A stretch of 64,000 nucleotides of DNA. It comes from Candidatus Promineifilaceae bacterium. Its GTDB lineage: Bacteria; Chloroflexota; Anaerolineae; Promineifilales; Promineifilaceae. The notes beneath the pieces were generated by a model. It saw only the letters and a program-made list of their open reading frames with translations. It was not told the origin of the DNA and searched no databases. The stretch is taken from the NCBI GenBank assembly GCA_049650305.1, contig JBARZW010000065.1:10585-74584 (forward strand), written 5' to 3'. Shown here piece after piece: positions 10,851 through 60,004 of this stretch (the stretch's first letter is position 1; every line of letters starts with the position of its first letter). A program made the translations under genes and the position numbers.

Positions 10851-10946
10851 TCAGGACACCAACAAATAACCTCGAGCCTGTATGTCGATGTTGTGAACGT
10901 CCAGGTCAATAAGCGCTTCGGTAAACTGGCTCCTACGTTTGATTAA

Positions 10947-11846: not shown

Positions 11847-11862
11847 TAAATGGTTCAACAAT

Positions 11863-13907: not shown

Positions 13908-13916
13908 AGGTGAACT

Positions 13917-15014: not shown

Positions 15015-15031
15015 TACACGAGGTTATTCTT

Positions 15032-15871: not shown

Positions 15872-15902
15872 TATCGGCATGGCCGTTGATGGAGTAAGAA
15901 CC

Positions 15903-26581: not shown

Positions 26582-27325
26582 TTAAAGAAATATCAGCAGC
26601 AGAGCATTTATCAACAGCAAACCTACAATGATTCGCTCAAATGTCACCGCGTCTACGCGGCCTATTAACCAGCGTCCGGCCACTACACCTATCGGAACCA
26701 GGGGGAGTAGCCAGGTTATCTGCCTGAGTAATTCAGAATCAAAAAGATCCGCGTATATGTAAAAAGGTACCTTAATCCAATTTAGAATCAAGAAAAACAA
26801 GGCGGAAGTAGCGATAAAAACCTTAGGGGTCACTTCCTGCATCAGCAAATAAATGCTTACCGGTGGACCACCTGTGTGCGCTAGGGCGGATGAGAAACCG
26901 GTTATAGTGCCGGCGACCAAGCCGTGCCAGTCACGACTCTTGTATACCATCGTGCGAAGAATACGTTTCTCGAGAATCTTATATATGGCGAAGATCAGAA
27001 CGATAACACCCAGTAACGTTCTCAGCGTCTCCGTTGGGGCATTGGTGATTAATACAGTGCCGATGATCACACCTACGATGGATCCCGGGATGAGCAGTAA
27101 CACCAGTTTTCGATTCCAGCGGCCCCAGTGCAAGCCGACGGCAAAAATATCCGCCAGCATAAGAATAGGTAGCACCAGTCCGATGACCTTGTCCGCAGGC
27201 ATCACCAGCGCCAACATTGGGGTTGCCAACGCACCAGCCGTTCCTCCTAGCCCCCCTTTTGAAAGGCCGATCAGAAAGGCGACAACGGCTATGACCAGAA
27301 TTATTAGCGCTGCTTCGCTATCCAT
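26582..27325 (-). CDS. TauE/SafE family sulfite/anion exporter
   Basis: 247 aa polytopic membrane protein with GLSKGGLGG and GGPPVSIYLL repeats typical of TauE/SafE. Confidence 0.8.
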   Translation of the reverse strand: MDSEAALIILVIAVVAFLIGLSKGGLGGTAGALATPMLALVMPADKVIGLVLPILMLADIFAVGLHWGRWNRKLVLLLIPGSIVGVIIGTVLITNAPTETLRTLLGVIVLIFAIYKILEKRILRTMVYKSRDWHGLVAGTITGFSSALAHTGGPPVSIYLLMQEVTPKVFIATSALFFLILNWIKVPFYIYADLFDSELLRQITWLLPLVPIGVVAGRWLIGRVDAVTFERIIVGLLLINALLLIFL

Positions 27326-27557
27326 GCACTTGTGTTACTACGTCGCACCTGATCCGGACGATCAGATCATTCTCAGTGTTTTAGTTGCAGGTGAAAGATG
27401 CGACTGATGTCAGATCCCTCAATAACGGATTTGTGCTTACCGGCGCAGAATGAGGTCGTTGCCGGCTGGGAATTGCCAGGCGAGGGTATAGAATATCGAC
27501 CCGGAAAACAGCTTCTTGTCCAGCCTTACTACCAATTTATACACCTCGTATTCCGGG

Positions 27558-28562
27558 TTAGGAATACCCATCGGCGAATATATCAATCATCAACTTTGGA
27601 TCCCCTAGCGGGTAAAGTATCGGACAGGTCGCGCCGTGATCGAGATATTCGCGTACTTTCGCCTTGACTTCTTCCGGGGAACCGCTCGCAGTGCACATTT
27701 GGACAACATCGTCTGGCACGAGATGCATCGCGTTTTCGATCTCTTCCTCTGTAGCTGGCCAGGTCAAGACCTGGTGAATCTCATCAAGGAGCTCCTGACT
27801 GACTCCGCTTGCCTTCATCAAGTGCGGCTGTTGGCCCAGGTACTGGGTCATCATTTTACGAGCTCCATTTAAGGCTTTCTTGCGGTCGTGGTCTACGGAA
27901 CAGATTACGAGCTGCGGGCGATCGATATCGTCGAGCTTGCGGCCGGCCCTTTTGGCGCCCTTTTCCAGGGCATCCATAGCCTGTAAATTATAATTGGGGT
28001 GAACCAGGTAATTGAGGCAAACGCCGTCTGCAATCTCGCCGGCCAACTCCATCATTTTCATGCCAGTAGCCCCGATATACAGTGGCACGTTTCGGGGTTC
28101 CTTCTTTCCGTGGACAACATCCAGCTTAATACCGTCAACATGATGAAACTCACCCTGGAAAGTAACTGTTTCCATGGCCAGCAGGCGACTCAAGACCTCG
28201 ACTGTTTCTCGCATAGCTAACAACGGCTTTCTTCGCCGAATGCCGACTTTCTGAGCCAGTGGATCCCACCAGGCCCCAATACCGCAGATAATCCGATCTT
28301 CTGCGAGGTCGTCCAGGGTCAGAAATGTGGCCGCAAGCAGGCCAATGTTTCGAGTCCAATTGTTTGTCACTCCGCTTGCCACTTTTATCTTGCTTGTTGT
28401 CGCGGCAAAGGCAGCCATTGGCACTATTGCATCGCGGACCAGCCTACTTTCTGCCTGCCATACCGCTTCAAAGCCGTTTTTTTCTGCATATTGGACAAAT
28501 CCAATAGCATCATCCAGGTTATGGGCATCCTGCATGTATAATGCAACACGATCAGTTGACAC
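27558..28562 (-). CDS. LLM-class (luciferase-like) flavin/F420-dependent oxidoreductase
   Basis: Luciferase-like TIM-barrel pattern ([17 protein letters not shown]). The suggestion of F420 dependence rests on adjacency to cofC/cofD. Confidence 0.75.
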
Positions 28563-28609
28563 GATCTTCTCCTATCGATTAGTTCCAAAAATGAGCAGAA
28601 CCGGCATAG

Positions 28610-29266
28610 TTAGCTGCTCGACACGAGATTCATCTGCATCGACAGATATGCATTCCAGTCTTCCTCAGTGTCGATGTCGAACTTGATACCTGATGCTTCT
28701 ACAATCCTCGCTGACATCCCCAATCTGGAAGCCTCCTCAAGATGAAGATTGAAGCTGTTCGGGCCATATTGAAACGTAAAACCAGTAGGTGGGCAAATGA
28801 GGAGAGCATTACTACCATCACGATTGTGATCACTACAAATAGCAATAGCCCGGTGTTGGCAACCACCATCCCCACTCTTTCCTACCACAACTTCCTCGGT
28901 CGCCGGTTCAATCATCTTTTCGACATCTTCGGTGGTAATGAAGGGAAGGTCAGCCGGTATTATCAAGATGCAATCTGCCTTCTTCGCCGCGGCTATATGC
29001 GATGCACGGGTTAAGGCGCTATTCAAACCTTGCTTATCCGTCTCGCTGTAAGTCGATGCACCCCCATTCCGGGCAACCTTAAGGGCTTTCCGATCGCGAC
29101 TTACCACCAAAATGCGGTCAATGTCATTTACGCCGACCAGCACCTGGAGGGTGGATTCCAAGATGTGGCTCGTCAATGCCGCCCGTTCGTCGGGCGACAA
29201 GACATCTGCCAGACGACTTTTACTGTCGTGAAGTGGTTTAACTGGAATAATCGCCCAGATAATCAT
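28610..29266 (-). CDS. cofC: 2-phospho-L-lactate (or PEP) guanylyltransferase CofC/FbiD
   Basis: N-terminal WAIIPVKPLHDSKSRL and later ILIIPADLP. Its start overlaps the cofD stop. Confidence 0.75.
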   Translation of the reverse strand: MIIWAIIPVKPLHDSKSRLADVLSPDERAALTSHILESTLQVLVGVNDIDRILVVSRDRKALKVARNGGASTYSETDKQGLNSALTRASHIAAAKKADCILIIPADLPFITTEDVEKMIEPATEEVVVGKSGDGGCQHRAIAICSDHNRDGSNALLICPPTGFTFQYGPNSFNLHLEEASRLGMSARIVEASGIKFDIDTEEDWNAYLSMQMNLVSSS

Positions 29267-30246
29267 TACTCAATATGCTCCATGCAGAAAGTCAATATTT
29301 CCCGTGCCAACCTGCTCCGATCACCTTGGTCAACCATTAACGTATCCGTCTGCATTGTCAGTAAATCAGACTGGTCGGGAGAGTCTTCGTCCCGCACATC
29401 ACTGACAAATAAATCGATCAGGCCATCGTAATAGGAGGCAACTGCGCTCGAGGTAGCCGGCATTCCCATCTCCTGCATCATCTTCGCTGCCGGTCCCTTA
29501 ACCGCCTTCCCCGCGATAATTGGGCTGATGGCAACGACCATCGCGGGCAGATCCGTCACCATTTCCCGAATGGGGTATACGTTCAAAATCGGATCGATGC
29601 TTACAAAGGGATTAGACGGAGCGACGACTAAAATGTGCGTATTGGAAAGGGCGTTCACTACCTGCGTAGTTGCCCTGACGTCGTGGGGAAAGAGGATTTC
29701 TTTGACGGCCGGCTGCCACTGCTGTTCCACAAACCAGGTCTGAAAAGGGAGTTGTCCCTCATCTGTGTCTATTAGTGTCGGAGCTGGTTGGTCACTCATT
29801 GGTAATAGATCGACGCCGATGCCGAAAACATCACATAGATGATGGGTAACTCCGGATAAGGAGAGACCGTCCGCCAAGAGATGGGTTCGAATAAGGTGGG
29901 TTCCAAGGTCAAGATCCCCTAGGGCAAACCAATCAGGACCGCCCAGCCGTTTTACCTCCTCCATCGCTCGCCAACTTTCTCCTGAGCGCCCCCAGCCAGT
30001 TTCACTGTTTGCAACACCTGCTAACAAATACATGACCGTGTCAAGATCAGGACATATCCTGAGGCCAAGATGATCAAAATCATCACCGGTATTTACGACG
30101 ATCGATAAGTTCTCCGGAGAGACATGTTGGGCAATACCGTCAGCTATCTTTGCCCCCCCTACTCCACCCGCCAGAACCGTCACATGGATCTCTGCCAGCT
30201 TGTGACGCAAGTCACTCTCATCTCGGGTCGTGTTGCTAACTGACAT
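29266..30246 (-). CDS. cofD: 2-phospho-L-lactate transferase CofD (F420 biosynthesis)
   Basis: VTVLAGGVGGAKIADG, VVNTGDDF and APSNPFVSI motifs. Confidence 0.85.
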   Translation of the reverse strand: MSVSNTTRDESDLRHKLAEIHVTVLAGGVGGAKIADGIAQHVSPENLSIVVNTGDDFDHLGLRICPDLDTVMYLLAGVANSETGWGRSGESWRAMEEVKRLGGPDWFALGDLDLGTHLIRTHLLADGLSLSGVTHHLCDVFGIGVDLLPMSDQPAPTLIDTDEGQLPFQTWFVEQQWQPAVKEILFPHDVRATTQVVNALSNTHILVVAPSNPFVSIDPILNVYPIREMVTDLPAMVVAISPIIAGKAVKGPAAKMMQEMGMPATSSAVASYYDGLIDLFVSDVRDEDSPDQSDLLTMQTDTLMVDQGDRSRLAREILTFCMEHIE

Positions 30247-34708: not shown

Positions 34709-36484
34709 CTAGTGACTGGCGCCGGCTTTCGTCTTTCTGATAGTCAATCGGTCCAGTAATGCTTCTGTGATGGCTACGCCTTCCATTGGTGAAAGGCCAA
34801 GGATGTCAAACACTACGGCGTTAAGCGCTTGCCAATCGGCTTGCCTGGCCTCGTCATAAACGCTGCCTACGGGACGATCGAGAAGAGCCTCAAAAGCAGA
34901 GACCAGTTCATCCGCCTGTACGGAAGGGAGGTATCTTGGATCGGGGAGCAACAGGCTTTCAACCTCATAGGTTGCCAACCAAAGGACCCCTTCGCCGAAA
35001 TTCACCCGCCCATTCAACTCTAACTGTAGCTCAAACCAGGCACTGTTAAGAAGCGCGGCGGCTGCATTCAGGGCGATACCATCGGCCAAATAGGTCTGGT
35101 ATAGTTGTTGATCCACAGCCATACTGCCATCAACTACCGGGGCGAAATGACGCTCCCAGATGCCTTTTGCCAGTAAGAGTGGGGCTTCCTCCTGCTGCGG
35201 AAGGTAATACCAGGGTCGACGCCCTCTGCAGGTTGTTCGCTGATGGAAGCCCTGGCTTTCTCCCCATAGGATATACTCGCCAACGGCCGTTCCTTTTAGC
35301 CGGTCATCTGGACCGACCGATAACAATTCAAGGTCACAATCGCCGGCACTCACTTTTCTAGCGTTGGTATTGCGAAAGGATTTGATCAAGGGTTTGCGGT
35401 ATGAATCCTCAATTTCCCATTCATCAACCGTTTTCTGATTGAGATAGAAGAATGAATTAGCGCCCGTTGTGTAGCCTCTCCTGACGGTGGCCCAGCTCTT
35501 AAAAGGGTGCAATTCGACCGCCTGTGTCCGTTGCAGGAGGACTGTTGGCGCTCTCAGGATATAGCCCCACTTCTCTGCCGGCGCCAACCCCTGCTGCATT
35601 ACTCCTCGCGTAGTGATGGCCTCGCCTTCGAAAGCATCCTCGGACACAATGGGTGTGATGAGGCTATCCAGGAATGGAAGGCGCCGGCTGTCATCCTCCT
35701 TATATGGGATTAGATTTCGCAGAGGGCTGCGAACCCGGACCATCTTTACCTGATTAGCGGCTCGCTTGTCAGCATCGCTGCACTTTTCAAGGATCACCAG
35801 ACAGGTGTTAATCTTGGCCTGGCTGAACCAACGTTCGACACTCGATTCGATGAGAGCGATGATCTTATAATGCTCAAGCAGGAACTGTTTAAGCCGTTCG
35901 CCATATGCCACGTCGAGCCAACTGTTTGGAACGACGAATCCGAATCGACCGCCTTCTCGCAAAAACTGGGTTCCATGCAAAAAGAAATAAGCGTGAAGAC
36001 CAGCTCTCCTACTGAGGGTTTGACTATCTGATCTTCCCTTTCTCCGGTAAGGTACAATGCCATCCGTGTCGTCGAACATGCTCAACTGCTGTGCGAATTG
36101 ACGTCGAATCCGTTGGTCCTTTTCTATCCAGCCGATCCATTCCGCCCTGGTATAAGGTGGGTTGCCGACAATGGCGTCAAAAAGCCCATCCGGCCAAGGT
36201 TGCATCTCGAAGAAGTTGCGTCCGATGATGTGCGCCTCGGGAACAACCTCCTGAGCATGGGCGGCAGCTTCCGAATCAAGCTCCACCCCCCACAATCTAG
36301 GGTTCGACTTCCGGCTAGGATCAAGCCACCGCTGCATCTGAGCGGCTCTGGCCAATATCGCGCCGTTTCCACAGCTGGGATCCAGCACACGATCTTCGGG
36401 ACGTCTCAGGCAAAAACCCAACAACAGATCTGCTACGTCGACGGGCGTTTCAAATTGCCCGTAAGCAAGTTGTTTGTCTGGCAT
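34709..36484 (-). CDS. N6-adenine DNA methyltransferase (gamma-class motif order, TaqI/Eco57I-like with a C-terminal recognition domain)
   Basis: Motif I VLDPSCGNGAIL is followed by motif IV GNPPYTRAEW. 591 aa, and I see no nuclease-like domain. Confidence 0.85.
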   Translation of the reverse strand: MPDKQLAYGQFETPVDVADLLLGFCLRRPEDRVLDPSCGNGAILARAAQMQRWLDPSRKSNPRLWGVELDSEAAAHAQEVVPEAHIIGRNFFEMQPWPDGLFDAIVGNPPYTRAEWIGWIEKDQRIRRQFAQQLSMFDDTDGIVPYRRKGRSDSQTLSRRAGLHAYFFLHGTQFLREGGRFGFVVPNSWLDVAYGERLKQFLLEHYKIIALIESSVERWFSQAKINTCLVILEKCSDADKRAANQVKMVRVRSPLRNLIPYKEDDSRRLPFLDSLITPIVSEDAFEGEAITTRGVMQQGLAPAEKWGYILRAPTVLLQRTQAVELHPFKSWATVRRGYTTGANSFFYLNQKTVDEWEIEDSYRKPLIKSFRNTNARKVSAGDCDLELLSVGPDDRLKGTAVGEYILWGESQGFHQRTTCRGRRPWYYLPQQEEAPLLLAKGIWERHFAPVVDGSMAVDQQLYQTYLADGIALNAAAALLNSAWFELQLELNGRVNFGEGVLWLATYEVESLLLPDPRYLPSVQADELVSAFEALLDRPVGSVYDEARQADWQALNAVVFDILGLSPMEGVAITEALLDRLTIRKTKAGASH

Positions 36485-49866: not shown

Positions 49867-51564
49867 CTATTCAATATATCCCATTCCGCGGAGCCTTTGA
49901 AGCAGCTGCGCTTCTTCCTCTCCTGATAATTCCTGCACGGGAGTTCCGGTCACAAGATCGCTGCTCTCCGCTTCTCTGGCAACGATTGGAAATGCATCAA
50001 TGTGAACCGGATCAAGGAGCTCGGTCAGGACTCGACCATCAAAGTTTGATGGCACAGGTAGTCCCATCAAGTACAAAATAGTTGACGGTATGTCAACCAG
50101 GCCAAGTAAAGGCAGATCTTCCTGAGGAACTACTGGTGGGCCCATGGCCATAAAGATACCATCTTGACGGTGTTCTCCAGGCCTAAATGGGGAAGTAGAC
50201 TCTGTCAGGAGTCGTCCCGCCAAAGATCCGCCGGCAATATATTTTGGTTTCAGCATTAGGATCACATCCGGGAAACGATCGACGTAGGGACCGCTGTACA
50301 GTTCCTCGCGTTTAAATGCCTCGTCGACTATTGGCTCTCCGCTGATGGGATCCAACATCTTCTTGGCTTCGCCGATGATGTATTCGCGTAATTTGTCGTA
50401 TTCACTGCCGGTCGAAACAATTCCCTCGCGCCTTTTTTCAACTAGGTTTATCTCGATACCACAAACATGAAAATAGATCGGTACCCAATAGGCTTGTGTA
50501 CTGTTCCAATCAATGATGTCAGTGCTAACCGATTCGGCGATTCCCTTGATCGATGATTGTGTTCTCTCAGGAATCACCCGCCGGATCAGGCGTTTTGCCT
50601 TATCGTTTCGGCCGATGCGTACTCTCCAGTACTCCATGTCCAAGAGACTGTCGCGTCTGCGTCTATGCAAAAGGCCAATCCTCTCTAACCAGATGTTCAA
50701 GTAGACCCGCCTGATCGGTGAAGCGCCAAAGCCATGATCTGATAACACCATAGAAACAGCCGGCTCGCCGAATGACTCGACCAATTGACCAATAGTCTCA
50801 TCCAACTCAGTTAGATAACGGACAATATCAGACTGAATTCGACCCGCGGCTTTGCCATCGTTTTGAACAATGGAATCCAGATCATCCCAAAAGAAGTGTG
50901 AAAGGCGATCAGTGCCCGTAAAGACGACCATGAAGAAATCCCATTGTTGTTCTTCAAGCAAACTTAGACATACTTTGCCCCGAATCTGAGACATCTCTCG
51001 AATTTTCGTCAGAATAACTGATTTCGGCGGAAATCCATGGTTTCGAAACTGATCATCTTCCCGGAGGAAATCCAGATCAATCACATAATCATCGCTCAGT
51101 GAAGCTGTAAGTGAGGGAGGGTATGTGTAATCTCGAGCACTTGGTGGCGTCAGCATTCCCGATACCATGTATCCATTGACTGCACGAGGTGGATAGGTAA
51201 GTGGCACATTGATCACAGCCACTCTCTTTCCATGATCGCTCATGATCTCCCACAGTGTATGCCCAAGGCGCCTTGAATCTACAAATCCACTTCCGGAGGT
51301 ACCATAGTTAAATAGATCGCGCTCCTGGAAAGATATGATCCCATGTTGGCCGGGATTCTGACCTGTAGCGAAAGTACTCCAAGCAGCGCCAGTAAAGGGT
51401 GGAATCGTCGACGCCAGTCGACCCCAAGATCCCTTTATCATTAAAGTGGCAAGATGAGGGAGAATTCCTTGTTTCACTAAAGGCAGCAAAACATCGAAAG
51501 TAGCTCCATCAAGACCGATTACGAGAATCCTTGGTTTCGTTCCCATGATTGAATGATTGTACAA
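49867..51564 (-). CDS. Alkaline phosphatase superfamily protein, nucleotide pyrophosphatase/phosphodiesterase (NPP)-like
   Basis: PRILVIGLDG (metal-binding Asp) and PPFTGAAWSTFATGQNPGQHGI with a candidate Thr58 nucleophile, which I align to the NPP T-F-P-N-H...HG motif. Later SDHGF. Confidence 0.75.
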   Translation of the reverse strand: MYNHSIMGTKPRILVIGLDGATFDVLLPLVKQGILPHLATLMIKGSWGRLASTIPPFTGAAWSTFATGQNPGQHGIISFQERDLFNYGTSGSGFVDSRRLGHTLWEIMSDHGKRVAVINVPLTYPPRAVNGYMVSGMLTPPSARDYTYPPSLTASLSDDYVIDLDFLREDDQFRNHGFPPKSVILTKIREMSQIRGKVCLSLLEEQQWDFFMVVFTGTDRLSHFFWDDLDSIVQNDGKAAGRIQSDIVRYLTELDETIGQLVESFGEPAVSMVLSDHGFGASPIRRVYLNIWLERIGLLHRRRRDSLLDMEYWRVRIGRNDKAKRLIRRVIPERTQSSIKGIAESVSTDIIDWNSTQAYWVPIYFHVCGIEINLVEKRREGIVSTGSEYDKLREYIIGEAKKMLDPISGEPIVDEAFKREELYSGPYVDRFPDVILMLKPKYIAGGSLAGRLLTESTSPFRPGEHRQDGIFMAMGPPVVPQEDLPLLGLVDIPSTILYLMGLPVPSNFDGRVLTELLDPVHIDAFPIVAREAESSDLVTGTPVQELSGEEEAQLLQRLRGMGYIE

Positions 51565-51660
51565 AGAATGTTGCTATGAAGACAGAGCTACAGTTTGGGC
51601 AAATTATATTCAGCCACAGCATCAAAGACTAAGTTGAATGATCTTAACGCTAGAGGTCAG

Positions 51661-53172
51661 CTAACATGGCGAAGGAAGCCACAGATCAATTATGGAAGAA
51701 GGCACGCCAATTTCCTGCCAATGGCTTATCAACTGATTGTGTAAATCTTGAGCGATCCCACATTGTGAGTCGATCAGGTTATCAAGCTGAAGCGGATCGG
51801 TGAGTAGGTAGTATAGCTCACTTGGGGCGTGGGCAGAGCCGTCCAGCAACGTCCACTCGCCATCTGTGACCGTGGCCCGTGGCTTGCTGGATAATGAAGC
51901 TACCAATGAGCGACTTGAAACAGCTATTTGCCTCGGAGATCCAGATTGACCATTCATATAAGGCAAGAGCGAATAACCGTGCATCGTTCCCGGATCAGAG
52001 GCCCCGGCCATATCTAGGATTGTAGGCATGATATCTGCAGGCTGGGCTAATGGTTCTAGCTGCGCAGGCGCCAGACCTGGAACCCGAATCATCAGCGGAA
52101 TATGATTTAGTTCCTGATAAAGCGGGTACGCTTCATAATGTCCTAGATGAGACCAGGCTTTTCCAACGGCGTTGTGCTCTCCAAGGAGGAAACCATGATC
52201 CGAGGTGAAAATAACAACGGTATTATGAGACAAGCCGAGGTTATCAAGTTCTGCTAGCAATATTCCAAACCAATGGTCCACCATGGTGATCTCGCCGGCA
52301 TAAAGGGCTCTGACGTGCTCAAGTTCTTCTGGAGTCAGATAATCTGGCGGCGCATACGCCGGGTATATGACCTCTTCACCCTCATATCCAGGGTTGTAGA
52401 GATCAACGTATGTCTGCGGTGGATCCCATGGTTCGTGTGGATCGAAGGAGTCGATATGCAGATAAAATGGACCGTAGGTCGTATTCCGGCGCAACCACTC
52501 TATGGCAGCCTGTATTGTCTGGGCTACAAGATAATCCGCTTCACCTGTTCGGCCGGATACGTTTCTCAGGTATTGTTCAACCGGTTCAGCTCCTCCACGG
52601 AATTTGGAGGGATCGGCGGGAAGAGTGGGGTGAAGAGGGTTGGCCCGAAACCGATCCCTCTCCTGTCCTCTGATCCATTCCCATGAGCTGAACCCGCGAT
52701 CGAAATAGAATCCCTCATCTTTCAGGTGCCAATTGTCAAATACGGCTCCAGTGGTATAGCCAGCTTCATTCATGACCGTCGCAGTAACAATCTCACCCTC
52801 TGGTAGATCCTCCCAGTCCATCTCGGTATACATGTAGCGCCCGGTAAATAGCTCAGCCCTATTGAGCACTGTTGGAAATCCCCCCGCGTATACGCGGTTA
52901 AATACTTGTGACTGCCCAGCGAAAGCATCTACGTTGGGTGTTTGAATCCAGTTATTCCCAAAGATTCCTACGTGATCAAACCGCCAAGTGTCGCACATAA
53001 CGACAATGAAGTTAAGCGTGTTTCCATCCGCTCGACCTAGGATTCTGGGTAGAAAGCAAAGATGGTTTTCCAACCCCTGACTTGGCAGCAGCTCGTTGGC
53101 GAATAGTGTCGTAGCTCCCATGGCGCCCGCACCTGCCATAAACTGCCGGCGAGTCACTTCTTTCCGAGCCAT
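51661..53172 (-). CDS. Tat-exported sulfatase-family (AP superfamily) protein lacking the C/S-x-P-x-R formylglycine motif
   Basis: Twin-arginine signal TRRQFMAGAGAMGA. Sulfatase-like FIVVMCDTWRFDHVG, GFPTVLNRAELFTGRY and FTSDHG. Confidence 0.75.
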   Translation of the reverse strand: MARKEVTRRQFMAGAGAMGATTLFANELLPSQGLENHLCFLPRILGRADGNTLNFIVVMCDTWRFDHVGIFGNNWIQTPNVDAFAGQSQVFNRVYAGGFPTVLNRAELFTGRYMYTEMDWEDLPEGEIVTATVMNEAGYTTGAVFDNWHLKDEGFYFDRGFSSWEWIRGQERDRFRANPLHPTLPADPSKFRGGAEPVEQYLRNVSGRTGEADYLVAQTIQAAIEWLRRNTTYGPFYLHIDSFDPHEPWDPPQTYVDLYNPGYEGEEVIYPAYAPPDYLTPEELEHVRALYAGEITMVDHWFGILLAELDNLGLSHNTVVIFTSDHGFLLGEHNAVGKAWSHLGHYEAYPLYQELNHIPLMIRVPGLAPAQLEPLAQPADIMPTILDMAGASDPGTMHGYSLLPYMNGQSGSPRQIAVSSRSLVASLSSKPRATVTDGEWTLLDGSAHAPSELYYLLTDPLQLDNLIDSQCGIAQDLHNQLISHWQEIGVPSSIIDLWLPSPC

Positions 53173-53429
53173 ATCTCAACCTTCCTTCTGATGTTTTTTG
53201 AGGTGCACGATAGATTCTAACCGCTGGATGGTAGGCCAGCTTACCGGTAAACGATAGCACACGTAACTGACCATCAGTTGAGCCAGAGATTAGAAATGAA
53301 TGAACTTTGATATTACTTTGTCCCCATCGATTAAGTACCCTACAATTGGTATGATAACAGCATCGTCGTTGGCGATGCTGTTTTGCCGTGAAAATACTAG
53401 ATAATAATTAGTTATACACAGGGAACTTT

Positions 53430-54647
53430 ATGACGGATTTTCAATCATCTGTAAATGTTGTTGCTCTCCTTGACGTAAGCCCTCCGCATGGTGGTCAGTT
53501 GGTCAACCGTATGATGCGTGGTCAGATGCGAAAAGCGGTGCAAGAGCGGGCGGAAGAGCTCGCCAAGGTCGAGTTGAGTCCATTTAGTTTGTCTGACCTC
53601 GAACTTCTTGCCCATGGCGCGATGAGCCCGCTAACCGGTTTCATGGGACAGGCTGACTACGAGCGCGTGGTTGGCGAAATGCGATTGAGCAACAATCTTC
53701 TATGGTCGCTACCCATTACTCTTCCCATCGATAGAGAAACAGCGAGTGGATTCCAGATCGGCCAGGAAATCGCCCTTTGCGAAGAGGGAAGGGTTCTCGC
53801 AGTCTTGGAAGTAGCCGAACTTTACGAATACGACAAGCTTCGGGAGGCAGAACTGGTTTATGGAACGACCGACGAGTCACACCCAGGCGTTTCCCGGTTA
53901 TTGCAACAGGGCGATATCCTGGTGGGAGGTGAGATCTGGGTAGTCGATTTGCCTGCTGCGGCGGCAAGCGAATTCCCTGAGTTGCGACACACACCTGCTC
54001 AAACACGAAGGATGTTCGCCAGGCGTGGTTGGCGCCGGATCGTCGGATTCCAGACCAGAAATCCTATACACCGGGCCCATGAGTATATTCAGAAAGCGGC
54101 GCTTGAAATTGTTGATGGGCTTTTCATCCATCCCCTGGTAGGCGAAACAAAACCCGACGATATCCCAGCGGATGTCCGTATTGCCAGTTATCAGGCAATC
54201 CTTCGTGATTATTATCCAGCGGACAGTGTGCTGCTGGGCGTATTTCCGGCGGCTATGCGATATGCCGGTCCTCGTGAGGCGATCTTCCACGCCCTGGTCC
54301 GCAAGAACTACGGCTGCACTCATTTTATTGTCGGGCGCGATCATGCTGGCGTCGGCGATTATTACGGCACTTATGATGCGCAACTTATCTTCGACACCTT
54401 CAAACGGGATGAAGTCGGCATCGAAATACTACCCTTCGATTACACTTTCTATTGTCGGAAATGCGGTATGGTCGTGAGTTCGAAAACGTGTCCGCACGAC
54501 CGCGAGAACTGGATCTTCTTGAGCGGTACGGAAGTGCGGGAGATGTTGGAGCGAGGTGAAATGCTCCCTCCTGAATTCACGCGTCCAGAGGTCTCGAAAG
54601 TCCTACTAGACGGTATGAAAGCGAAAAACAAAAACGATTCTCCGTAA
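53430..54647 (+). CDS. sat: Sulfate adenylyltransferase (ATP sulfurylase)
   Basis: FQTRNPIHRAHEY and HFIVGRDHAGVG motifs; 405 aa. Confidence 0.9.
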   Translation: MTDFQSSVNVVALLDVSPPHGGQLVNRMMRGQMRKAVQERAEELAKVELSPFSLSDLELLAHGAMSPLTGFMGQADYERVVGEMRLSNNLLWSLPITLPIDRETASGFQIGQEIALCEEGRVLAVLEVAELYEYDKLREAELVYGTTDESHPGVSRLLQQGDILVGGEIWVVDLPAAAASEFPELRHTPAQTRRMFARRGWRRIVGFQTRNPIHRAHEYIQKAALEIVDGLFIHPLVGETKPDDIPADVRIASYQAILRDYYPADSVLLGVFPAAMRYAGPREAIFHALVRKNYGCTHFIVGRDHAGVGDYYGTYDAQLIFDTFKRDEVGIEILPFDYTFYCRKCGMVVSSKTCPHDRENWIFLSGTEVREMLERGEMLPPEFTRPEVSKVLLDGMKAKNKNDSP

Positions 54648-54711
54648 CCATTCCGGTTCGCAGTCCGCTATCGTATTGCTTTCGGTTTGACCACCGCCAA
54701 GAGAAAAACGC

Positions 54712-56142
54712 ATGTTGAAGAGACTGTTTGGACGAAAAAAGAGCCCTAAGGTGTTCGTAATTGGGCTTGACTGCGCCCCGCCAGAGTTAATATTCCACTC
54801 CTGGCGAGACAAGCTACCCAATTTTAAGCGGCTGATAGATGGGGGTGCTACAAGCGAATTGTATAGCTCTACGCCGGCCATAACCGTGCCAGCGTGGAGT
54901 TCTATGACCAGCAGTAAAGATCCCGGTGTCCTCGGCTTTTATGGGTTTCGCAATCGACGAGATTATAGTTACGATAATCGTTACATAGCTACTGGTTTGA
55001 CGGTAAAAGAGAGACGCATCTGGGATATCCTCGGTGAGGCGGGTTTGCAGTGTACTATCGTCGGTGTACCCCAAACTTACCCAGTCAAGCCAGTCAATGG
55101 TTTTCTGATCTCCAGCTTTCTGACTCCAAGTACGACGAATCCGAAAGTCCAGTGGACTCATCCGGCGTCACTTCGAACAGAGGTTGAGAGTCTGCTCGCT
55201 CCGGACGTATATGATGTCGACGTGCCCCAATTCCGGACCGATGACAAGGCATTCTTGTTAAAGCAGATTTACGATATGACTGGGAAACGGTTTCGGGTGC
55301 TCCGGTATCTTATGGACGAGAAACCATGGGATTTCTTTATGTTTGTGGAAATGGGCGTCGATCGCATCCATCACGGTCTTTGGGCCCATCACGATCCAGA
55401 GCATCGAAAGCATGATCCTGACAGCCCATTCGTTAGTGCGATTTGGGAATACTATCTCTATCTTGATAAGGAAATTGGTACGTTACTCGAGAGAATACCT
55501 CCCGAGACCCATGTAATCGTTGTCTCCGACCATGGCGTAAAAAAAATGGACGGCGGGATTTGTATCAATGAGTGGCTCCGACGAGAGGGCTATCTCCAAT
55601 TGTACGACGATCCTCCAGAGGGCCATCTGTCATCCTTTGAGAAGGTGGAGGTGGATTGGGCTAACACAAGAGTATGGGGTGACGGTGGTTATTACGGCCG
55701 GATATTTCTTAATGTAGAGGGCCGCGAATCCAACGGCGTGATACCGGCAGACGAATACGAATCATTTCGCGAAACCCTGGCCGATCATATCAAGAGCATA
55801 CCCGCACCTGATGGCAAGATGCTGGACACCAAAGTTTTCAAGCCCCAGGATATCTACCGTGAAGTGCGCGGCGTGGCACCTGATCTTCTCGTTTATTTTG
55901 ACAACCTGGGTTGGCGCTCGGTAGGCAGTTTTGGTCACGGTGATATCTACACCTTAGAAAACGATACGGGACCAGATGACGCGAATCACGCGGTAAATGG
56001 CATATGGATATATACACCTCCCGAAGAGGATCTCGGCGGTGTATCCTTGCCTCCAACCCAATTGATGGACTTTGCGCCGACGATCCTTGATATATTTGGT
56101 CTGCCAATTCCCTCTGACATGCAAGGTAAAGTAATTAGATAA
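54712..56142 (+). CDS. Alkaline phosphatase superfamily protein, NPP-like (paralog type of 49867..51564)
   Basis: PKVFVIGLDCA and STPAITVPAWSSMTSSKDPGVLG with a candidate Thr58; later VVSDHGV. It lies between sat and cysC on the same strand. Confidence 0.75.
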   Translation: MLKRLFGRKKSPKVFVIGLDCAPPELIFHSWRDKLPNFKRLIDGGATSELYSSTPAITVPAWSSMTSSKDPGVLGFYGFRNRRDYSYDNRYIATGLTVKERRIWDILGEAGLQCTIVGVPQTYPVKPVNGFLISSFLTPSTTNPKVQWTHPASLRTEVESLLAPDVYDVDVPQFRTDDKAFLLKQIYDMTGKRFRVLRYLMDEKPWDFFMFVEMGVDRIHHGLWAHHDPEHRKHDPDSPFVSAIWEYYLYLDKEIGTLLERIPPETHVIVVSDHGVKKMDGGICINEWLRREGYLQLYDDPPEGHLSSFEKVEVDWANTRVWGDGGYYGRIFLNVEGRESNGVIPADEYESFRETLADHIKSIPAPDGKMLDTKVFKPQDIYREVRGVAPDLLVYFDNLGWRSVGSFGHGDIYTLENDTGPDDANHAVNGIWIYTPPEEDLGGVSLPPTQLMDFAPTILDIFGLPIPSDMQGKVIR

Positions 56143-56172
56143 GTAAGCGCTTAAAAATATAGATTCACTCAT

Positions 56173-56739
56173 ATGACGAAAACAGATTCAGCAAAAGAAC
56201 AGAAAGGATTCGTTCTCTGGATGACCGGTCTATCCGGATCGGGCAAGACCACCATTGCTCATATCCTTGAGGAGGAGTTGCGCGGGCGTGGTCTTAAGGT
56301 GGAACGTCTTGATGGCGATATTGTTCGTGAGAGCCTCACCCGCGACCTGGGATTCAGCAAGGAAGACCGTGAGAAGAATATCGAGCGAATCACCTTCGTA
56401 GCCAAGTTACTTTCTCGCAACGGGGTCGCCTGCATTTGCTCCTTTATCTCTCCCTACCAGTCGATACGCGATCGCGTTCGTGCGGAAACCACGCATTTCA
56501 TTGAGGTATTTGTGGACGCTTCTCTGGAATCCGTAATCGAGCGAGATGTGAAAGGCCTATACAAGATGGCCCTTGAAGGAGAGATCCCTAATTTTACCGG
56601 GATTTCTGATCCATTTGAGGCGCCGGCCAATCCGGATATTCATGTGCGTACCGATCTCCAGACACCTCTCGAGAGTGCTGGCAAAATCCTCGGCGAACTA
56701 GAGGATACGGGACTAATCCCGGTTGCGGAACTGGTATAG
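56173..56739 (+). CDS. cysC: Adenylyl-sulfate (APS) kinase
   Basis: GFVLWMTGLSGSGKTTIA P-loop, LDGDIVR, SFISPY. Confidence 0.9.
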   Translation: MTKTDSAKEQKGFVLWMTGLSGSGKTTIAHILEEELRGRGLKVERLDGDIVRESLTRDLGFSKEDREKNIERITFVAKLLSRNGVACICSFISPYQSIRDRVRAETTHFIEVFVDASLESVIERDVKGLYKMALEGEIPNFTGISDPFEAPANPDIHVRTDLQTPLESAGKILGELEDTGLIPVAELV

Positions 56740-56806: not shown

Positions 56807-57679
56807 ATGACGATCAGGGAAGCCCTGGCAACCGGCCGGAAAAAGCTCATCGATTCACCATCCCCAGCCCTAGATACCCGCCTGATCCTGGAACATGTGA
56901 TGGCAGTGAGCCACCGCTATCTCATCACTCATGATGAGGAGAGCATGAATCCGGAACAGGCTTACCGCTATCTCTCGCTCTTGGAACGAGCCAGCACTGG
57001 AGAGCCCATTCCCTACCTGATCGGCAAGACTCAGTTTCATGGCCTCGACATTAAGGTATCGCCGTCGGTGCTTATCCCAAGGCCAGAGACTGAACAGCTA
57101 GTAGATTTAGCCCTGGAATGGGTTGCACACAGGTACAGCAGGCAGGAACGGCCTCATATCATCGATGTAGGAACCGGTAGCGGCTGTATTGCTCTGGCCC
57201 TGGCAAGTGAATTACCCAACGCCACGATTGAAGCGACAGATATCTCCAAAGCTGCCCTCGAGCTGGCCGAAGAGAATTCTCGGGTTTTAGGCTTTGACGA
57301 CAGAATTAAGTTTCATCAAGGCCAATATCTTCAGCCGATAATCGAAGCCCCGGATCTCGTGGTCGCCAATCTGCCGTATATTGCCGACCACGAGTGGACG
57401 TCACTAAACGTTGGTGTAAAATGGTACGAGCCGGACGTCGCCTTACGGGGTGGGTCTGATGGATTGGATGGCATTCGGCAATTAATGGCCCAGGCCAATA
57501 ACAGGCTGGCTCGCGGCGGCGCGATGCTTCTGGAGATCGGATGGCAGCAAGGCCAGACCGCGCGCATGTTGGCCCAATCCACCTTTCCCTCCGCTCGCGT
57601 TGATCTGATACAAGATTATGGCGGGCATGATCGTGTAGTTCGCATCTGTACCGGCGAAGCCGATAGCGATATTAACTAA
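56807..57679 (+). CDS. prmC: Release factor glutamine N5-methyltransferase PrmC/HemK
   Basis: PRPETE, IIDVGTGSGCIALALA and the NLPYI motif. Confidence 0.85.
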   Translation: MTIREALATGRKKLIDSPSPALDTRLILEHVMAVSHRYLITHDEESMNPEQAYRYLSLLERASTGEPIPYLIGKTQFHGLDIKVSPSVLIPRPETEQLVDLALEWVAHRYSRQERPHIIDVGTGSGCIALALASELPNATIEATDISKAALELAEENSRVLGFDDRIKFHQGQYLQPIIEAPDLVVANLPYIADHEWTSLNVGVKWYEPDVALRGGSDGLDGIRQLMAQANNRLARGGAMLLEIGWQQGQTARMLAQSTFPSARVDLIQDYGGHDRVVRICTGEADSDIN

Positions 57680-58305
57680 TGGCAAAGATGCTGGATGCTA
57701 GTCACCCGGAAGCAATAGAACAAGCAGCCGAACTGATCAAGCTCGGCTACCTTGTCGCCTTTCCAACCGACACCTTGTACGGCGTTGGGGTAAACGTCGC
57801 TGATCCGGATGCGATTGACAAGCTCTATATTGCGAAGAACCGTTCCCGTCAGAAGGGCATCCCTGTATTGCTTGCACGAAAGAGCGATGTGGACAGCATC
57901 GCCATGAGAATCCCAGCCGAAGCCAGAGCACTCATCGATAGATATTGGCCCGGGCCGCTTACTCTCATCCTCCATAAGCGATTGGATTTAGCCAGCGGAT
58001 TGTCCCCGAACCAAGGGATTGCCGTAAGAGTACCCGATAATGTAATCGCTCGTCGCCTAATTAACAGTGCAGGAGGGGCGATCGCGACGAGCAGCGCCAA
58101 CCAGTCGGGATCCAGCCCGGCCCTTACCGCCGATCAGGCAATGAGGGCCTTAAAGGGATCTATCGCCGCGGTCCTGGATGGAGGAGCGGTACGACACGGT
58201 GTTGCTTCCACGATATTGGATTTCACTTCCGATCCTCCGCGCATAATCCGGAATGGACCGATACCAACTAAAGAACTAATAGTTGGAGATTTGAAGCTGG
58301 CATGA
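57679..58305 (+). CDS. tsaC: L-threonylcarbamoyladenylate synthase (TsaC/YwlC/Sua5 family)
   Basis: FPTDTLYGVG, KNRSRQKGIPVLL, SSANQSG. Confidence 0.85.
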   Translation: MAKMLDASHPEAIEQAAELIKLGYLVAFPTDTLYGVGVNVADPDAIDKLYIAKNRSRQKGIPVLLARKSDVDSIAMRIPAEARALIDRYWPGPLTLILHKRLDLASGLSPNQGIAVRVPDNVIARRLINSAGGAIATSSANQSGSSPALTADQAMRALKGSIAAVLDGGAVRHGVASTILDFTSDPPRIIRNGPIPTKELIVGDLKLA

Positions 58306-58880
58306 GTGGAATAACGCTACCGATCATACTGACGGTAATCGCCGCAATTGCTGCGTTGATAGCCTACCAGGGAATTAGACGCGGAGGTGCGCGTTTTTAT
58401 ACCTTGGAAAGAGAATCTATGTTACGCCGAGCCAGGTTTACACTGCTCGGTAGCTTGATGCTTTTTCTGGCAGCCATCGCGTTGCTCATATACAGCTACG
58501 GACAGATTAGCGACGATAATGGTCTGAGTAGTGGCGATGATCCGTTGAATGTTGCCACGGAAGAACCGGATGAACTGTTTGAGACGCAGCCACCAACCCC
58601 TTCTCCATCACCCACAGTTGATCCTAGTCTCCCGACTCCAACGCCAACCGAGACTATCTGCCGGGCAATCGTCGAAGGCACATCTGGAAGTGGTCTCACT
58701 TTACGGGATGCTCCAGGTGGTGGCGAGATGACGATCCTTCGCGACGGGAGCTATCTCACGCTGATAGTTGGTGAAGAGCCGGTCGAAGCCAATGGCTTTG
58801 ATTGGATAAAGGTTCGAACTGTTTCGCTAGAGGAGGGCTGGGTTGCCGAAGAGTTTTTGATCATGGGCGAATGCCGCTAG
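58302..58880 (+). CDS. Membrane-anchored protein with a C-terminal SH3b-like domain
   Basis: Two N-terminal TM helices, a Pro/Thr linker, and LTLRDAPGGGEMTILRDGSYLTLI...WIKVRTVSLEEGWVAEEFL. Its ATGA start overlaps the tsaC stop. Confidence 0.55.
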   Translation: MSGITLPIILTVIAAIAALIAYQGIRRGGARFYTLERESMLRRARFTLLGSLMLFLAAIALLIYSYGQISDDNGLSSGDDPLNVATEEPDELFETQPPTPSPSPTVDPSLPTPTPTETICRAIVEGTSGSGLTLRDAPGGGEMTILRDGSYLTLIVGEEPVEANGFDWIKVRTVSLEEGWVAEEFLIMGECR

Positions 58881-58894
58881 GGGAAACTTCCGGA

Positions 58895-60004
58895 ATGATA
58901 ATCGGCATTGACGCCAGTCGAGCCATTGAAGGTGAGCGGACAGGAACGGAAGCCTATTCCCTCTTTCTTACGAGATCACTTATCCCACTAGCCACGTCCA
59001 GGGGGCATCGTATTCGCCTCTATTACAACGACAGACCGGCCGAGGAGATATTCCCAACCGCTGATGATATTGAGCATGTGGAACTATCATTTCCGCGCCT
59101 GTGGACACATCTGAGGCTTGCATCCGAGTTACATAGGAGGCCGCCGGACGTCTTTTTCACGCCGGCCCATGTCCTACCCTACTCCTACCGTCGTCCCAGC
59201 GTGGCAACCGTGCATGATCTCGGCTTCTTGGTATACCCAGAAGCCCATACACGACGGCAGCTTGTCTACCTCCGCTGGAGCACCGGGCACAATTCGAGGC
59301 GAGCCAGAAAGGTGATCGTCGACTCCGAAGCTACTAAAAAAGACCTGATCAAATACTATAAGATACCGGCCGAAAAAGTGGAGGTGATATTCCCCGGAAT
59401 TGACCCGGAATTAAGGCCAGTTATGGATGCAGATAAACGGGCGGCTGTCATGGAGAAATATGGCATAACACCACCATACATCCTCCATATTGGAACGATC
59501 CAGCCCCGCAAGAATCTGACGCGCCTTATAGACAGCTTCATTGGCAGCGGGGTGGATCACCAGCTTGTCCTCGCCGGAAAGCTCGGGTGGCTGGCTGAGC
59601 CAATCGTGGCAAAAGTGCAAGAAATGAAACCAGCCAATCGGGAACGTATTCTTCTTGCCGGTTACATCGCCGCTGAAGACAAAGGAGCCTTGATATCCGC
59701 GGCTGAGGCCTTGGTGTTCCCTTCGCTCTATGAGGGATTTGGATTTCCCGTGGTGGAGGCGAACGCCTGCGCGACGCCGGTCTTGGCCTCGAATTCCAGC
59801 TCAATTCCAGAGGTAGCCGGTGACGCTGCCTTGCTCGTCGATCCGCTCAACCAGACGGCTATTGGCAATGGGATATCTCATATTCTTGACGATGAAACGT
59901 TGCGCCATCGCCTAGTCAAAGCTGGTTTTAATAACGTCCGGCGTTTTTCCTGGGAGACGGCGGCCGTGAAAACCCTTGATGTACTTGAGAACGCAGCCAG
60001 CTAA
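58895..60004 (+). CDS. Glycosyltransferase family 4 (GT-B)
   Basis: Start set at MIIGIDASRAI. GT1 core FPSLYEGFGFPVVEANACATPVLASNSSSIPEV. The track ORF begins at 58802 inside the upstream gene. Confidence 0.8.
   Translation: MIIGIDASRAIEGERTGTEAYSLFLTRSLIPLATSRGHRIRLYYNDRPAEEIFPTADDIEHVELSFPRLWTHLRLASELHRRPPDVFFTPAHVLPYSYRRPSVATVHDLGFLVYPEAHTRRQLVYLRWSTGHNSRRARKVIVDSEATKKDLIKYYKIPAEKVEVIFPGIDPELRPVMDADKRAAVMEKYGITPPYILHIGTIQPRKNLTRLIDSFIGSGVDHQLVLAGKLGWLAEPIVAKVQEMKPANRERILLAGYIAAEDKGALISAAEALVFPSLYEGFGFPVVEANACATPVLASNSSSIPEVAGDAALLVDPLNQTAIGNGISHILDDETLRHRLVKAGFNNVRRFSWETAAVKTLDVLENAAS

Follow-up and report, generated by a model that had tools for sequence, protein, structure and literature searches.

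A stretch of 64,000 nucleotides from a Candidatus Promineifilaceae bacterium (Chloroflexota; contig JBARZW010000065.1, positions 10,585 to 74,584), called the window below, carries sat and cysC, the genes for ATP sulfurylase and adenosine 5′-phosphosulfate (APS) kinase. Between them lies a gene for a 476-residue protein of the nucleotide pyrophosphatase/phosphodiesterase (NPP) type, which we call NPP476. Two further genes of the alkaline phosphatase (AP) superfamily are found upstream on the opposite strand, one for a second NPP-like protein (NPP565) and one for a sulfatase-family protein. The open reading frames (ORFs) were located exactly where a first-pass annotation, made from the letters alone, had placed them, and their order was as it had reported: NPP-like and sulfatase-family genes on the minus strand, then sat, NPP476 and cysC on the plus strand. 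Coordinates are collected in Table 1, together with related sulfatase-family genes from other loci.

Table 1. Features of the sat-NPP476-cysC region in the window and sulfatase-family partners at other loci (L, locus number)
Feature	Position	Strand	Description
NPP565	49867-51564	-	PF01663 Phosphodiest (type I phosphodiesterase/nucleotide pyrophosphatase), 565 aa
sulfatase-family gene	51661-53172	-	PF00884 Sulfatase, 503 aa, weak signal like that of twin-arginine translocation (TAT)
divergent intergenic region, sulfatase-family gene/sat	53173-53429		257 bp; promoters presumed from gene coordinates
sat	53430-54647	+	PUA_2 + ATP-sulfurylase; homo-oligomeric-type ATP sulfurylase, releases pyrophosphate
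NPP476	54712-56142	+	PF01663 full length, 476 aa; NPP-fold metalloenzyme of the AP superfamily
cysC	56173-56739	+	Pfam APS_kinase 2.5e-60; NCBIfam adenylyl-sulfate kinase 252 bits
prmC, sua5/yrdC, 192-aa membrane/SH3-like ORF, GT4 glycosyltransferase	56807-60004	+	downstream run (Pfam)
Thr/Ser-type sulfatase-family partner	L006:6876-8456		
Thr/Ser-type sulfatase-family partner	L085:4556-6025		
Thr/Ser-type sulfatase-family partner	L086:1120-2712		
Thr/Ser-type sulfatase-family partner	L089:5602-6873		
Thr/Ser-type sulfatase-family partner	L090:3146-4441		
Thr/Ser-type sulfatase-family partner	L094:1102-2388		

Sat was assigned with Pfam E-values of 1.5e-98 and 5.3e-55 for its two domains and 556 bits for the NCBIfam sulfate adenylyltransferase model. 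The gap between sat and NPP476 is 64 bp and that between NPP476 and cysC 30 bp, and neither contains a terminator-like site. One promoter-like match was present in the divergent region between the sulfatase-family gene and sat, at 53318-53346 (+). Because the promoter and terminator scans of 49.5-60.5 kb gave counts not above shuffled expectation, we infer co-transcription of the three genes from spacing alone. The Rfam search of the whole window returned no match, and hence no riboswitch upstream of sat. The genes from prmC to the GT4 gene are co-directional with cysC, with short or overlapping gaps. They probably belong to the same transcription unit and are dispensable for the function proposed here for NPP476.

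NPP476 matches PF01663 over the entire profile (positions 1-342 of 342) with 155.7 bits, against a cutoff of 23. The VIGLD metal site (V16-D20) and Thr58, which had been picked out earlier as metal site and candidate nucleophile, were confirmed by alignment, both being invariant in 87 of 87 aligned orthologs. Overall, the NPP nucleophile T58 and the six metal ligands D20, D217, H221, D273, H274 and H426 are invariant among 87-88 orthologs. HMMER alignment to the Xanthomonas NPP (2GSN) places T58 at the nucleophile T90, and D273/H274 at D257/H258. The Phe that clamps the base beside the nucleophile of the Xanthomonas enzyme (TFPNH) is absent; at position 59, 81 of 87 orthologs have Val and 5 have Ile (TVPAW). 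Residues invariant in orthologs and not in paralogs include R80, N81, R175, R402 and D422. Inspection of the sequence revealed no signal peptide or hydrophobic N-terminus, and NPP476 is predicted to be cytoplasmic.

The AlphaFold2 model of NPP476 has a pLDDT of 81.4 and a pTM of 0.84. In Foldseek searches it matched solved structures with a probability of 1.0, TM scores of 0.5-0.6 and E-values down to 7e-14, at about 14% identity. The best of these were ENPP1/3/6, Xanthomonas NPP and phosphonoacetate hydrolase; ENPP5, snake venom phosphodiesterase and autotaxin were also among the top 50 PDB matches. Sequence search against PDB chains gave nothing at E ≤ 0.01, a profile search gave only marginal local matches, and NCBIfam contains no model for the protein. 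Taken on its sequence and predicted fold, NPP476 is a genuine but distant member of the NPP clade of the AP superfamily, with the catalytic set intact. The family is large: more than 8,000 clusters at 90% identity match the NPP476 query, and family and paralogs together form 4,534 clusters at 50% identity with E ≤ 1e-30.

Membership of other families was also considered. Pfam assigns NPP476 to PF01663 only, and not to a known pyrophosphatase (PPase) family, and E. coli Ppa matches nothing in the window. No FIG, DHH or PHP domain was detected in NPP476 by Pfam, and it has no similarity to E. coli CysQ. Neither NPP476 nor NPP565 nor the sulfatase-family protein matches a Sulfotransfer family.

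To survey gene neighbourhoods one genome per species was scanned. It yielded at least 594 relatives, of which we examined the best 80, each sharing 50% identity or more with NPP476. These 80 loci represent the closest relatives only. Most lie on contigs of metagenome-assembled genomes, which makes the adjacency counts minimum values. Represented among them are Chloroflexota, Planctomycetota, Verrucomicrobiota, Latescibacterota, Marinimicrobia, Calditrichota, Acidobacteriota, Thermodesulfobacteriota and other phyla. In 47 of the 80, sat and/or cysC lie within 3 kb of the NPP476 ortholog (both genes in 32, sat only in 8 and cysC only in 7); among loci with at least 3 kb of flanking sequence on both sides the figure is 23 of 45. 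Chance would produce well under one linked locus in 80, by a rough estimate from two target genes among a few thousand and about six neighbour slots. The association of NPP476 with sat and cysC is therefore far above chance.

At least four gene orders were observed: sat-NPP-cysC (Anaerolineae), NPP-cysC-sat (Ktedonobacteraceae), sat::cysC-NPP and NPP-cysC, the double colon denoting a fusion. Start and stop codons frequently overlap, e.g. in L040, L042, L076 and L082. In a neighbour-joining tree of the orthologs linked and unlinked loci are interleaved, indicating one orthologous family rather than a linked subclade. Mean identity to the window protein over 37 loci with all three genes is 59% for NPP476, 61% for Sat and 56% for CysC, and the three proteins thus appear to evolve at similar rates.

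The association extends to gene fusions. Seven of the 80 genomes have Sat and NPP476 joined in frame in a single ORF, about 860-970 aa long; the L011 protein is an example of such a fusion. Complete genomes that carry NPP476 include CP070688.1, CP070811.1, NZ_CP195100.1 (Tundrisphaera), NZ_CP155447.1 (Singulisphaera) and OX638329.1. A search with one Sat::NPP476 fusion returned at least 120 clusters, 63-98% identical, from NCBI, JGI, ENA and Logan; PUA_2, ATP-sulfurylase and Phosphodiest domains were present in every one of the matches listed (120/120). CysC::NPP476 fusions were found in three proteins (P0260, P0445 and P0447). The first-pass annotation had read the position of the gene as a functional link to sat and cysC, and the neighbourhoods of homologs bear this out strongly, the fusions to both enzymes extending the result. 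On the grounds of linkage and fusions we consider NPP476 functionally tied to sulfate activation.

Rarer fusions link NPP476 to other enzymes. A protein of 1,151 aa (P0303, L089:7459-10914) consists of NPP476, a pyruvate kinase (PK) barrel and PUA_2-Sat, and P0335 of NPP476 and a PK barrel. An NTP_transferase::NPP476 fusion was present in two assemblies (P0285 and P0392). NPP476 is also fused to a GT2 glycosyltransferase in P0294, marked partial by its source. The transferase part of P0285 is 62-67% identical to NTP_transferase + GATase proteins, one of which is named L-glutamine-phosphate cytidylyltransferase by JGI, and its NPP part shares 61% identity with the corresponding part of the Sat::NPP fusion P0393. 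The locus of P0285 (L090) also encodes a separate Peptidase_C26/GATase protein, a CTP_transf_like + PPDK_N protein, LicD and phosphoenolpyruvate (PEP) mutase. This gene content matches the Campylobacter O-methyl-phosphoramidate pathway (Cj1416/1417/1418) plus a phosphonate pathway.

Some of these loci have further features of their own. L090 (L090:1-18175) is a metagenomic glycan cluster in which GATase and cytidylyltransferase occur with a kinase of the PPDK_N type that carries a fused CTP_transf_like domain; it additionally encodes a PEP mutase::NTP_transf fusion, LicD and a 1,090-aa NTP_transferase-aminotransferase-B12-radical-SAM protein. The PK barrels of P0303, P0335 and P0435 lack the PK C-terminal domain, and that of P0435 lies between an IspD-like NTP_transferase and Sat. 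A Pacearchaeota contig encodes a 439-aa fusion of NTP_transf_3 and a P-loop kinase (AAA_17/18/33; L094:3217-4536); the surrounding glycan cluster includes NPP476 and a sulfatase-fold gene of the Thr type but neither sat nor cysC. The architecture of the fusion parallels the bifunctional Sat::CysC enzyme, and its product may be another 3′-phosphorylated activated donor.

The surroundings of the three genes are of two kinds. At L081, L082-84 and L088 the trio stands amid unrelated, non-glycan genes, which speaks for a role of its NPP member in the synthesis of 3′-phosphoadenosine 5′-phosphosulfate (PAPS) itself, not in modification of a particular glycan. The order sat-NPP476-cysC-prmC-sua5 is conserved at L081 (82% identical); L087 has the same run from NPP476 onward, followed by SH3, GT4, WecG and epimerase genes, with no recognisable sat upstream. 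NPP476 lies within glycan clusters in the window and at L085, L086, L087 and L089. In the window this is a polysaccharide-type cluster at approximately 38.9-64 kb with epimerases, GT1/GT2/GT4 genes, a Wzx-like flippase, a PD40 protein and a WecG/TagA-family transferase, outside of which the genes are unrelated and of housekeeping type. The envelope-glycan setting suggested earlier is thus present both in the window and in several relatives. The divergent arrangement of sulfatase-family gene and sat was also seen at L006 and L009.

No homolog of E. coli CysD, CysN, CysH, CysI, CysJ, CysQ or Ppa was detected by tblastn in the window and 90 loci. The idea that the trio is embedded in a reductive assimilation pathway was accordingly dropped on the CysD, CysN, CysH, CysI and CysJ results. 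That a known pyrophosphatase, or a known phosphatase for 3′-phosphoadenosine 5′-phosphate (pAp), is encoded alongside was dropped as well, CysQ and Ppa being negative by tblastn, and family II, DHH and PHP proteins having been checked via Pfam tables only. NPP476 accompanies only the Sat-type sulfurylase, which works without GTPase coupling, and where there is a context its local link is to glycan synthesis and not to the reductive branch. The PAPS made by the window's enzymes is most likely used for envelope-glycan sulfation rather than for reductive assimilation.

Genes for an HddA-like GHMP kinase, a SIS isomerase, inositol-1-phosphate synthase, nusB, tatC and thioredoxin-like proteins are other recurrent neighbours. 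Of the recurrent neighbours other than sat and cysC only the GHMP kinase spans two phyla, being found at L014, L015, L019, L020, L022 and L039 (Ktedonobacteraceae) and at L067, L071 and L075 (Verrucomicrobiota). In Ktedonobacteraceae the genes run NPP476-cysC-sat-GHMP kinase-SIS isomerase, and inositol-1-phosphate synthase is encoded upstream of them. Chthoniobacterales have the order GT2-NPP476-GHMP kinase-571-aa NPP paralog-acyltransferase-GT4, and no sat or cysC. A role as heptose-bisphosphate phosphatase (GmhB-like) was rejected for NPP476, as it leaves the Sat fusions unexplained. Among 131 de-duplicated neighbours the only families recurring at least three times were glycosyltransferases (6 GT4-type, 3 GT2), response regulators and sigma-70 region 4.

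What NPP476 does for sulfate activation can be approached through its fusion partners. Inorganic pyrophosphate (PPi) is, as far as can be judged, the only species common to the reactions of Sat and of a cytidylyltransferase (CTP + phosphorylated acceptor giving CDP-X + PPi), and removal of PPi is therefore favoured. We propose that NPP476 hydrolyses the PPi released by Sat and other nucleotidyltransferases and so pulls an unfavourable reaction, a proposal whose chances of being right and wrong we put about equal. It is rated the likeliest because Sat is the top partner, because a nucleotidyltransferase unrelated to Sat has nearly the same enzyme as its fusion partner, and because the trio stands alone. 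Its support comes from genomic context and fusions and from one speculation in the literature, and it is meant in the sense that NPP476 would work like a pyrophosphatase, not that it belongs to a known family of these. The divergence of NPP476, which tracks that of Sat and CysC, and the stand-alone trios fit a common small-molecule substrate.

According to this proposal Sat, NPP476 and CysC would constitute a prokaryotic PAPS-synthesis module, with NPP476 as its third component. The Sat step converts ATP and sulfate into APS and PPi with a very unfavourable equilibrium, which hydrolysis of PPi relieves; NPP476 would hydrolyse the PPi formed and, together with APS kinase, draw sulfate activation forward. 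Elsewhere it would likewise serve other nucleotidyltransferases that release PPi and whose products are activated donors used to decorate glycans. Thr58 would attack PPi at the bimetal site to give a phospho-Thr intermediate, which would then be hydrolysed, and the ortholog-specific invariant residues R80, N81, R175 and R402 would bind the polyanion.

The three-part fusion of L089 can be read in the same terms. In vitro synthesis of PAPS uses ATP sulfurylase, APS kinase, pyrophosphatase and, for recycling of ADP, pyruvate kinase together, and since these are used together the PK-barrel fusion would complete the enzyme set. No APS kinase was found within 8 kb at L089, and ADP recycling by a PK barrel beside Sat is one guess as to what it may do. 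In a reconstituted assay of archaeal ATP sulfurylase and APS kinase, pyrophosphatase was the rate-limiting component (PMC10322725).

The first-pass annotation had suggested APS, PAPS, pAp or a sulfated or phosphorylated product as substrate. Our data do not specifically support this: copies 61% identical to each other are fused to Sat in one case and to a phosphoramidate-type cytidylyltransferase in the other. It is further disfavoured by the trios without glycan genes and by separate candidates for pAp removal, i.e. a PHP-family protein at L089 and a DHH pAp phosphatase in archaeal clusters. The PHP-family gene overlaps the end of the NPP::PK::Sat gene. Some PHP proteins are 3′,5′-bisphosphate nucleotidases.

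One form of the substrate suggestion makes NPP476 a classical nucleotide pyrophosphatase that acts on APS or PAPS, or on a by-product of the Sat reaction, for instance dinucleoside polyphosphates, as a safety valve or house-cleaning enzyme limiting APS and PAPS. The NPP fold with its full catalytic set speaks for it, and so does the earlier argument that APS and PAPS, being phosphosulfate anhydrides, are chemical analogues of what NPPs cleave; moreover, APS strongly inhibits both Sat and CysC. However, a hydrolase of the product fused to the enzyme making that product would be futile, and translational coupling to sat and cysC at 1:1 speaks against house-cleaning of trace compounds. The Phe forming the adenine clamp of NPPs is Val or Ile here, and the fusion to a cytidylyltransferase also has to be accommodated. 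We regard this explanation as very improbable.

The CysC fusions and the seven loci with tight NPP-cysC pairs and no sat bring in another possibility, that NPP476 replaces CysQ as a 3′-phosphatase destroying the toxic pAp left after use of PAPS, or pCp (the cytidine counterpart) in a phosphoramidate pathway. Such an activity has arisen in several folds (FIG, DHH), genes for pAp phosphatases are known within sat/cysC clusters, and no CysQ homolog is present in the window or the 90 loci. Yet the commonest fusion partner is Sat and not CysC, eight loci have sat-NPP pairs without cysC, and no APS-kinase-type gene is present within 8 kb of the cytidylyltransferase fusion. The role would, besides, already be filled by the candidate PHP protein of L089 and by the proven DHH phosphatase of archaeal clusters. 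A CysQ replacement is in our view unlikely.

Several observations weigh against hydrolysis of PPi by NPP476. Characterised NPPs are diesterases and nucleotide pyrophosphatases, which release PPi rather than hydrolyse it, and the fold would need a monoesterase-like adaptation to do so. With 476 aa the protein is large for a job done by the 175-aa Ppa. No sat or cysC lies within 3 kb of 33 of the 80 orthologs. A pAp phosphatase would be just as compatible with the three CysC::NPP proteins and with the NPP-cysC pairs that lack sat. For each of the rarer fusion architectures there are between one and three metagenomic gene calls. Finally, a haloarchaeal paralog 29% identical to NPP476 is encoded just downstream of a canonical ppa, which would be redundant if the paralogs shared hydrolysis of PPi. 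All 29 plasmid matches are haloarchaeal; they are distant paralogs (25-29% identity) and were for this reason rejected as orthologs. The paralog beside ppa, annotated as nucleotide pyrophosphatase, lies 420 bp past the inorganic diphosphatase gene on the same strand of Natrinema thermotolerans plasmid CP031304.1 (L096:7044-9338); another haloarchaeal plasmid match examined (L097) is in a glycan cluster.

NPP565 is approximately 25-30% identical to NPP476 and keeps all metal ligands. Its likely true start is an ATG six codons inside the ORF, giving about 559 aa. It is a cytoplasmic PF01663 paralog with a C-terminal tail ending in LQRLRGMGYIE. Paralogs of the NPP565 type were found in 14 of the 80 loci, at 25-34% identity, and in PF01663 paralogs the six ligands are kept with T or S as nucleophile. 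Glycan clusters often contain extra genes of the superfamily; at L086 two sulfatase-family genes and three more PF01663 genes surround Sat::NPP476 and cysC.

In the window's sulfatase-family protein Thr replaces the Cys/Ser of the Cys/Ser-x-Pro-x-Arg formylglycine motif (FPTVLNRAELFTGR); the motif position reads T-V-L-N-R, with no Cys and no Pro. All six aligned partners from other loci (Table 1) have Thr or Ser in place of the formylglycine Cys. Five of the six begin at the first beta-strand without a signal peptide, and that of L086 has a long hydrophobic N-terminal extension. The designation 'sulfatase' for the gene at 51661-53172 is thus a family-level call only, and by its motif the protein is not a formylglycine sulfatase. 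A Thr-type, cytoplasmic PF00884 subfamily recurs in glycan clusters of sulfate, phosphoramidate and phosphonate type.

An acidic stretch followed by a C-terminal tail 'RLRxLGY(L/I/M)' is common to differing AP-superfamily proteins, with endings such as LQRLRGMGYIE, LDHLESLGYL, EERLRDLGYM and DRLRALGYLE. It is carried by NPP565 (window 49867-49920), the Sat::NPP476 protein of L043, L085:4556-6025 and L006:6876-8456, and not by the window NPP476. The tail may be a docking or sorting motif.

The first-pass annotation had mentioned a sulfotransferase stump in the cluster. This was not located: in a search confined to window ORFs of at least 100 aa, the 700-bp gap at 60.0-60.7 kb included, no sulfotransferase Pfam domain was found. 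Nor was a Sulfotransfer domain present in the gene tables of L081-L090, or among the families matched by at least two of the 131 de-duplicated neighbours. These results raise the possibility that NPP476 and/or its AP-fold paralogs (NPP565-type and Thr-type sulfatase-fold proteins) are group transferases that replace the missing canonical sulfotransferase, moving a sulfuryl, phosphoryl or phosphoramidyl group from PAPS, APS or CDP-X onto Thr and then to a glycan or lipid acceptor. The AP superfamily includes established transferases (EptA/MCR-1, LtaS, BcsG) that work through a covalent Thr/Ser intermediate. Several of the glycan-cluster loci carry 2-5 AP-superfamily genes, the NPP::GT2 fusion exists, and the sulfatase-fold partners have a Thr/Ser nucleophile and mostly no signal peptide.

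For NPP476 itself, however, a transfer role is contradicted by the trios without glycan genes, by its high conservation, which tracks Sat and CysC, and by the 61% identity between copies fused to makers of chemically different donors. One third of orthologs occur in housekeeping contexts, e.g. nusB-tatC. The window's sulfatase-family protein has an export signal and so would not encounter cytoplasmic PAPS, and absence of a sulfotransferase within 10 kb says nothing on the rest of a genome. We therefore consider the transferase explanation quite unlikely, and more plausible for NPP565-type and Thr-type sulfatase-fold proteins than for NPP476. In its general form, i.e. that clusters without a canonical sulfotransferase decorate glycans by AP-fold enzymes of any of these three kinds through covalent sulfo- or phospho-Thr from a PAPS, APS or CDP donor, it is doubtful to a marginally greater degree. 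If true, AP-fold sulfotransferases would form a new class of enzymes, with no relation to PAPS sulfotransferases of the P-loop-like kind. The consistent failure to find canonical sulfotransferases in the glycan clusters examined points to an unassigned sulfation step.

Other parts of the window deserve brief description. Immediately behind cysC, separated by short gaps or overlapping, come prmC and sua5/yrdC in the window (56807-58305), at L081:12249-13651 and at L087:11915-13411; this pairing of PAPS synthesis with translation-related genes is odd yet conserved in the lineage and operon-like. An operon of the Bat (aerotolerance-like) type at 9858-17762 comprises genes for a MoxR AAA ATPase, DUF58, an unassigned ORF, two BatA/VWA proteins, a TPR protein and BatD. 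At 26582-30246 (-) there are genes for a TauE/SafE-family anion permease and a luciferase-like monooxygenase, with cofC and cofD of F420 biosynthesis. This TauE/SafE gene lies 27 kb from sat, and at L085 a TauE gene sits between Sat::NPP476 and cysC. A 591-aa protein with an Eco57I-type N6-adenine DNA methyltransferase domain is encoded at 34709-36484 (-), flanked by an HhH-GPD glycosylase gene and, on the other side, by a 156-aa unassigned ORF followed by an Asp/Lys/Asn-type class II tRNA synthetase gene.

Sulfate activation is uphill, and textbook prokaryotic schemes consist of Sat (or CysDN) and CysC, with removal of PPi left to a generic pyrophosphatase. NPP476 is viewed here as an NPP-fold enzyme recruited as a dedicated third component of prokaryotic PAPS-synthesis and related donor-activation modules. 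A large family emerges as a dedicated, often fused partner of Sat and CysC in Chloroflexota, Planctomycetota, Verrucomicrobiota, Latescibacterota, DPANN archaea and others. Genes beside sat and cysC annotated 'alkaline phosphatase family protein' can be read as part of a PAPS module, whichever the function. Should NPP476 be a pyrophosphatase, it would represent an NPP-fold soluble type dedicated to activation reactions and a ready part for enzymatic production of PAPS; should it act on pAp or as a transferase, it would close another gap that is just as open. The first-pass annotation knew of no described role of this kind and was nearly right. Our literature search found the association of sat/cysC with an NPP-type gene once, in an aside on archaea that speculates on PPi degradation for a gene of a sat/cysC cluster (PMC8268124), and nothing on AP-superfamily sulfotransferases.

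Several groups of known enzymes invite comparison with NPP476. EptA/MCR-1, LtaS, OpgB and BcsG are AP-superfamily proteins with a Thr/Ser nucleophile encoded in clusters for decoration of envelope polymers, and the window's PF00884 protein shares with them the Thr in place of formylglycine. These transferases are extracytoplasmic and membrane-anchored and use lipid donors, whereas NPP476 and NPP565 are predicted to be soluble and cytoplasmic; to our knowledge no transfer activity is known for PF01663 proteins. The pAp phosphatases (CysQ/HAL2 of the FIG fold, NrnA and archaeal PAPP of the DHH fold and Cv1693-type PHP proteins) are similar in being accessory phosphohydrolases often encoded beside sat and cysC. 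Their folds are unrelated to that of NPP476, which is mostly fused to Sat, shares a cluster with a PHP candidate at L089 and has a similarly annotated archaeal counterpart beside a DHH gene.

The likeness to the NPPs themselves (Xanthomonas NPP 2GSN and ENPP1/3/6) lies in the fold, PF01663, the Thr nucleophile and six metal ligands in the same order. Those enzymes are secreted or ecto-enzymes with a clamp Phe after the nucleophile. NPP476 would be cytoplasmic and is only about 14% identical; it has an extra region of about 100 aa, Val or Ile in place of the Phe, its own invariant R80/N81/R175/R402 and a genetic link to Sat and CysC.

A parallel in gene content is an archaeal cluster, described in Pyrococcus yayanosii (PYCH_17520-17560) and others, with the order sat, DHH pAp phosphatase, 'type I phosphodiesterase/nucleotide pyrophosphatase', cysC and TauE (Jin et al. 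2021, PMC8268124). The DHH enzyme was characterised in that work, and degradation of PPi by its PF01663-type neighbour is the authors' speculation. The two systems have in common an ATP sulfurylase, a gene of the PF01663 type and an APS kinase, and a TauE/DUF81 permease is close by (L085 has TauE too). PYCH_17550, which has a homolog in Thermococcus onnurineus, is likened to NPP476 by its annotation and is a candidate ortholog. The archaeal clusters differ in carrying the DHH gene, which is not a recurrent neighbour in the bacterial loci surveyed.

A precedent in rationale is eukaryotic. Stramenopiles and haptophytes possess fusions of ATP sulfurylase with inorganic pyrophosphatase, explained by removal of PPi that shifts the unfavourable equilibrium of the sulfurylase (Patron et al. 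2008, PMC2275785). As in the Sat::NPP476 proteins, a third activity is physically joined to ATP sulfurylase. The eukaryotic fusions employ a canonical pyrophosphatase domain, whereas in those described here the joined domain has the NPP fold, does not resemble family I pyrophosphatases and has a predicted activity.

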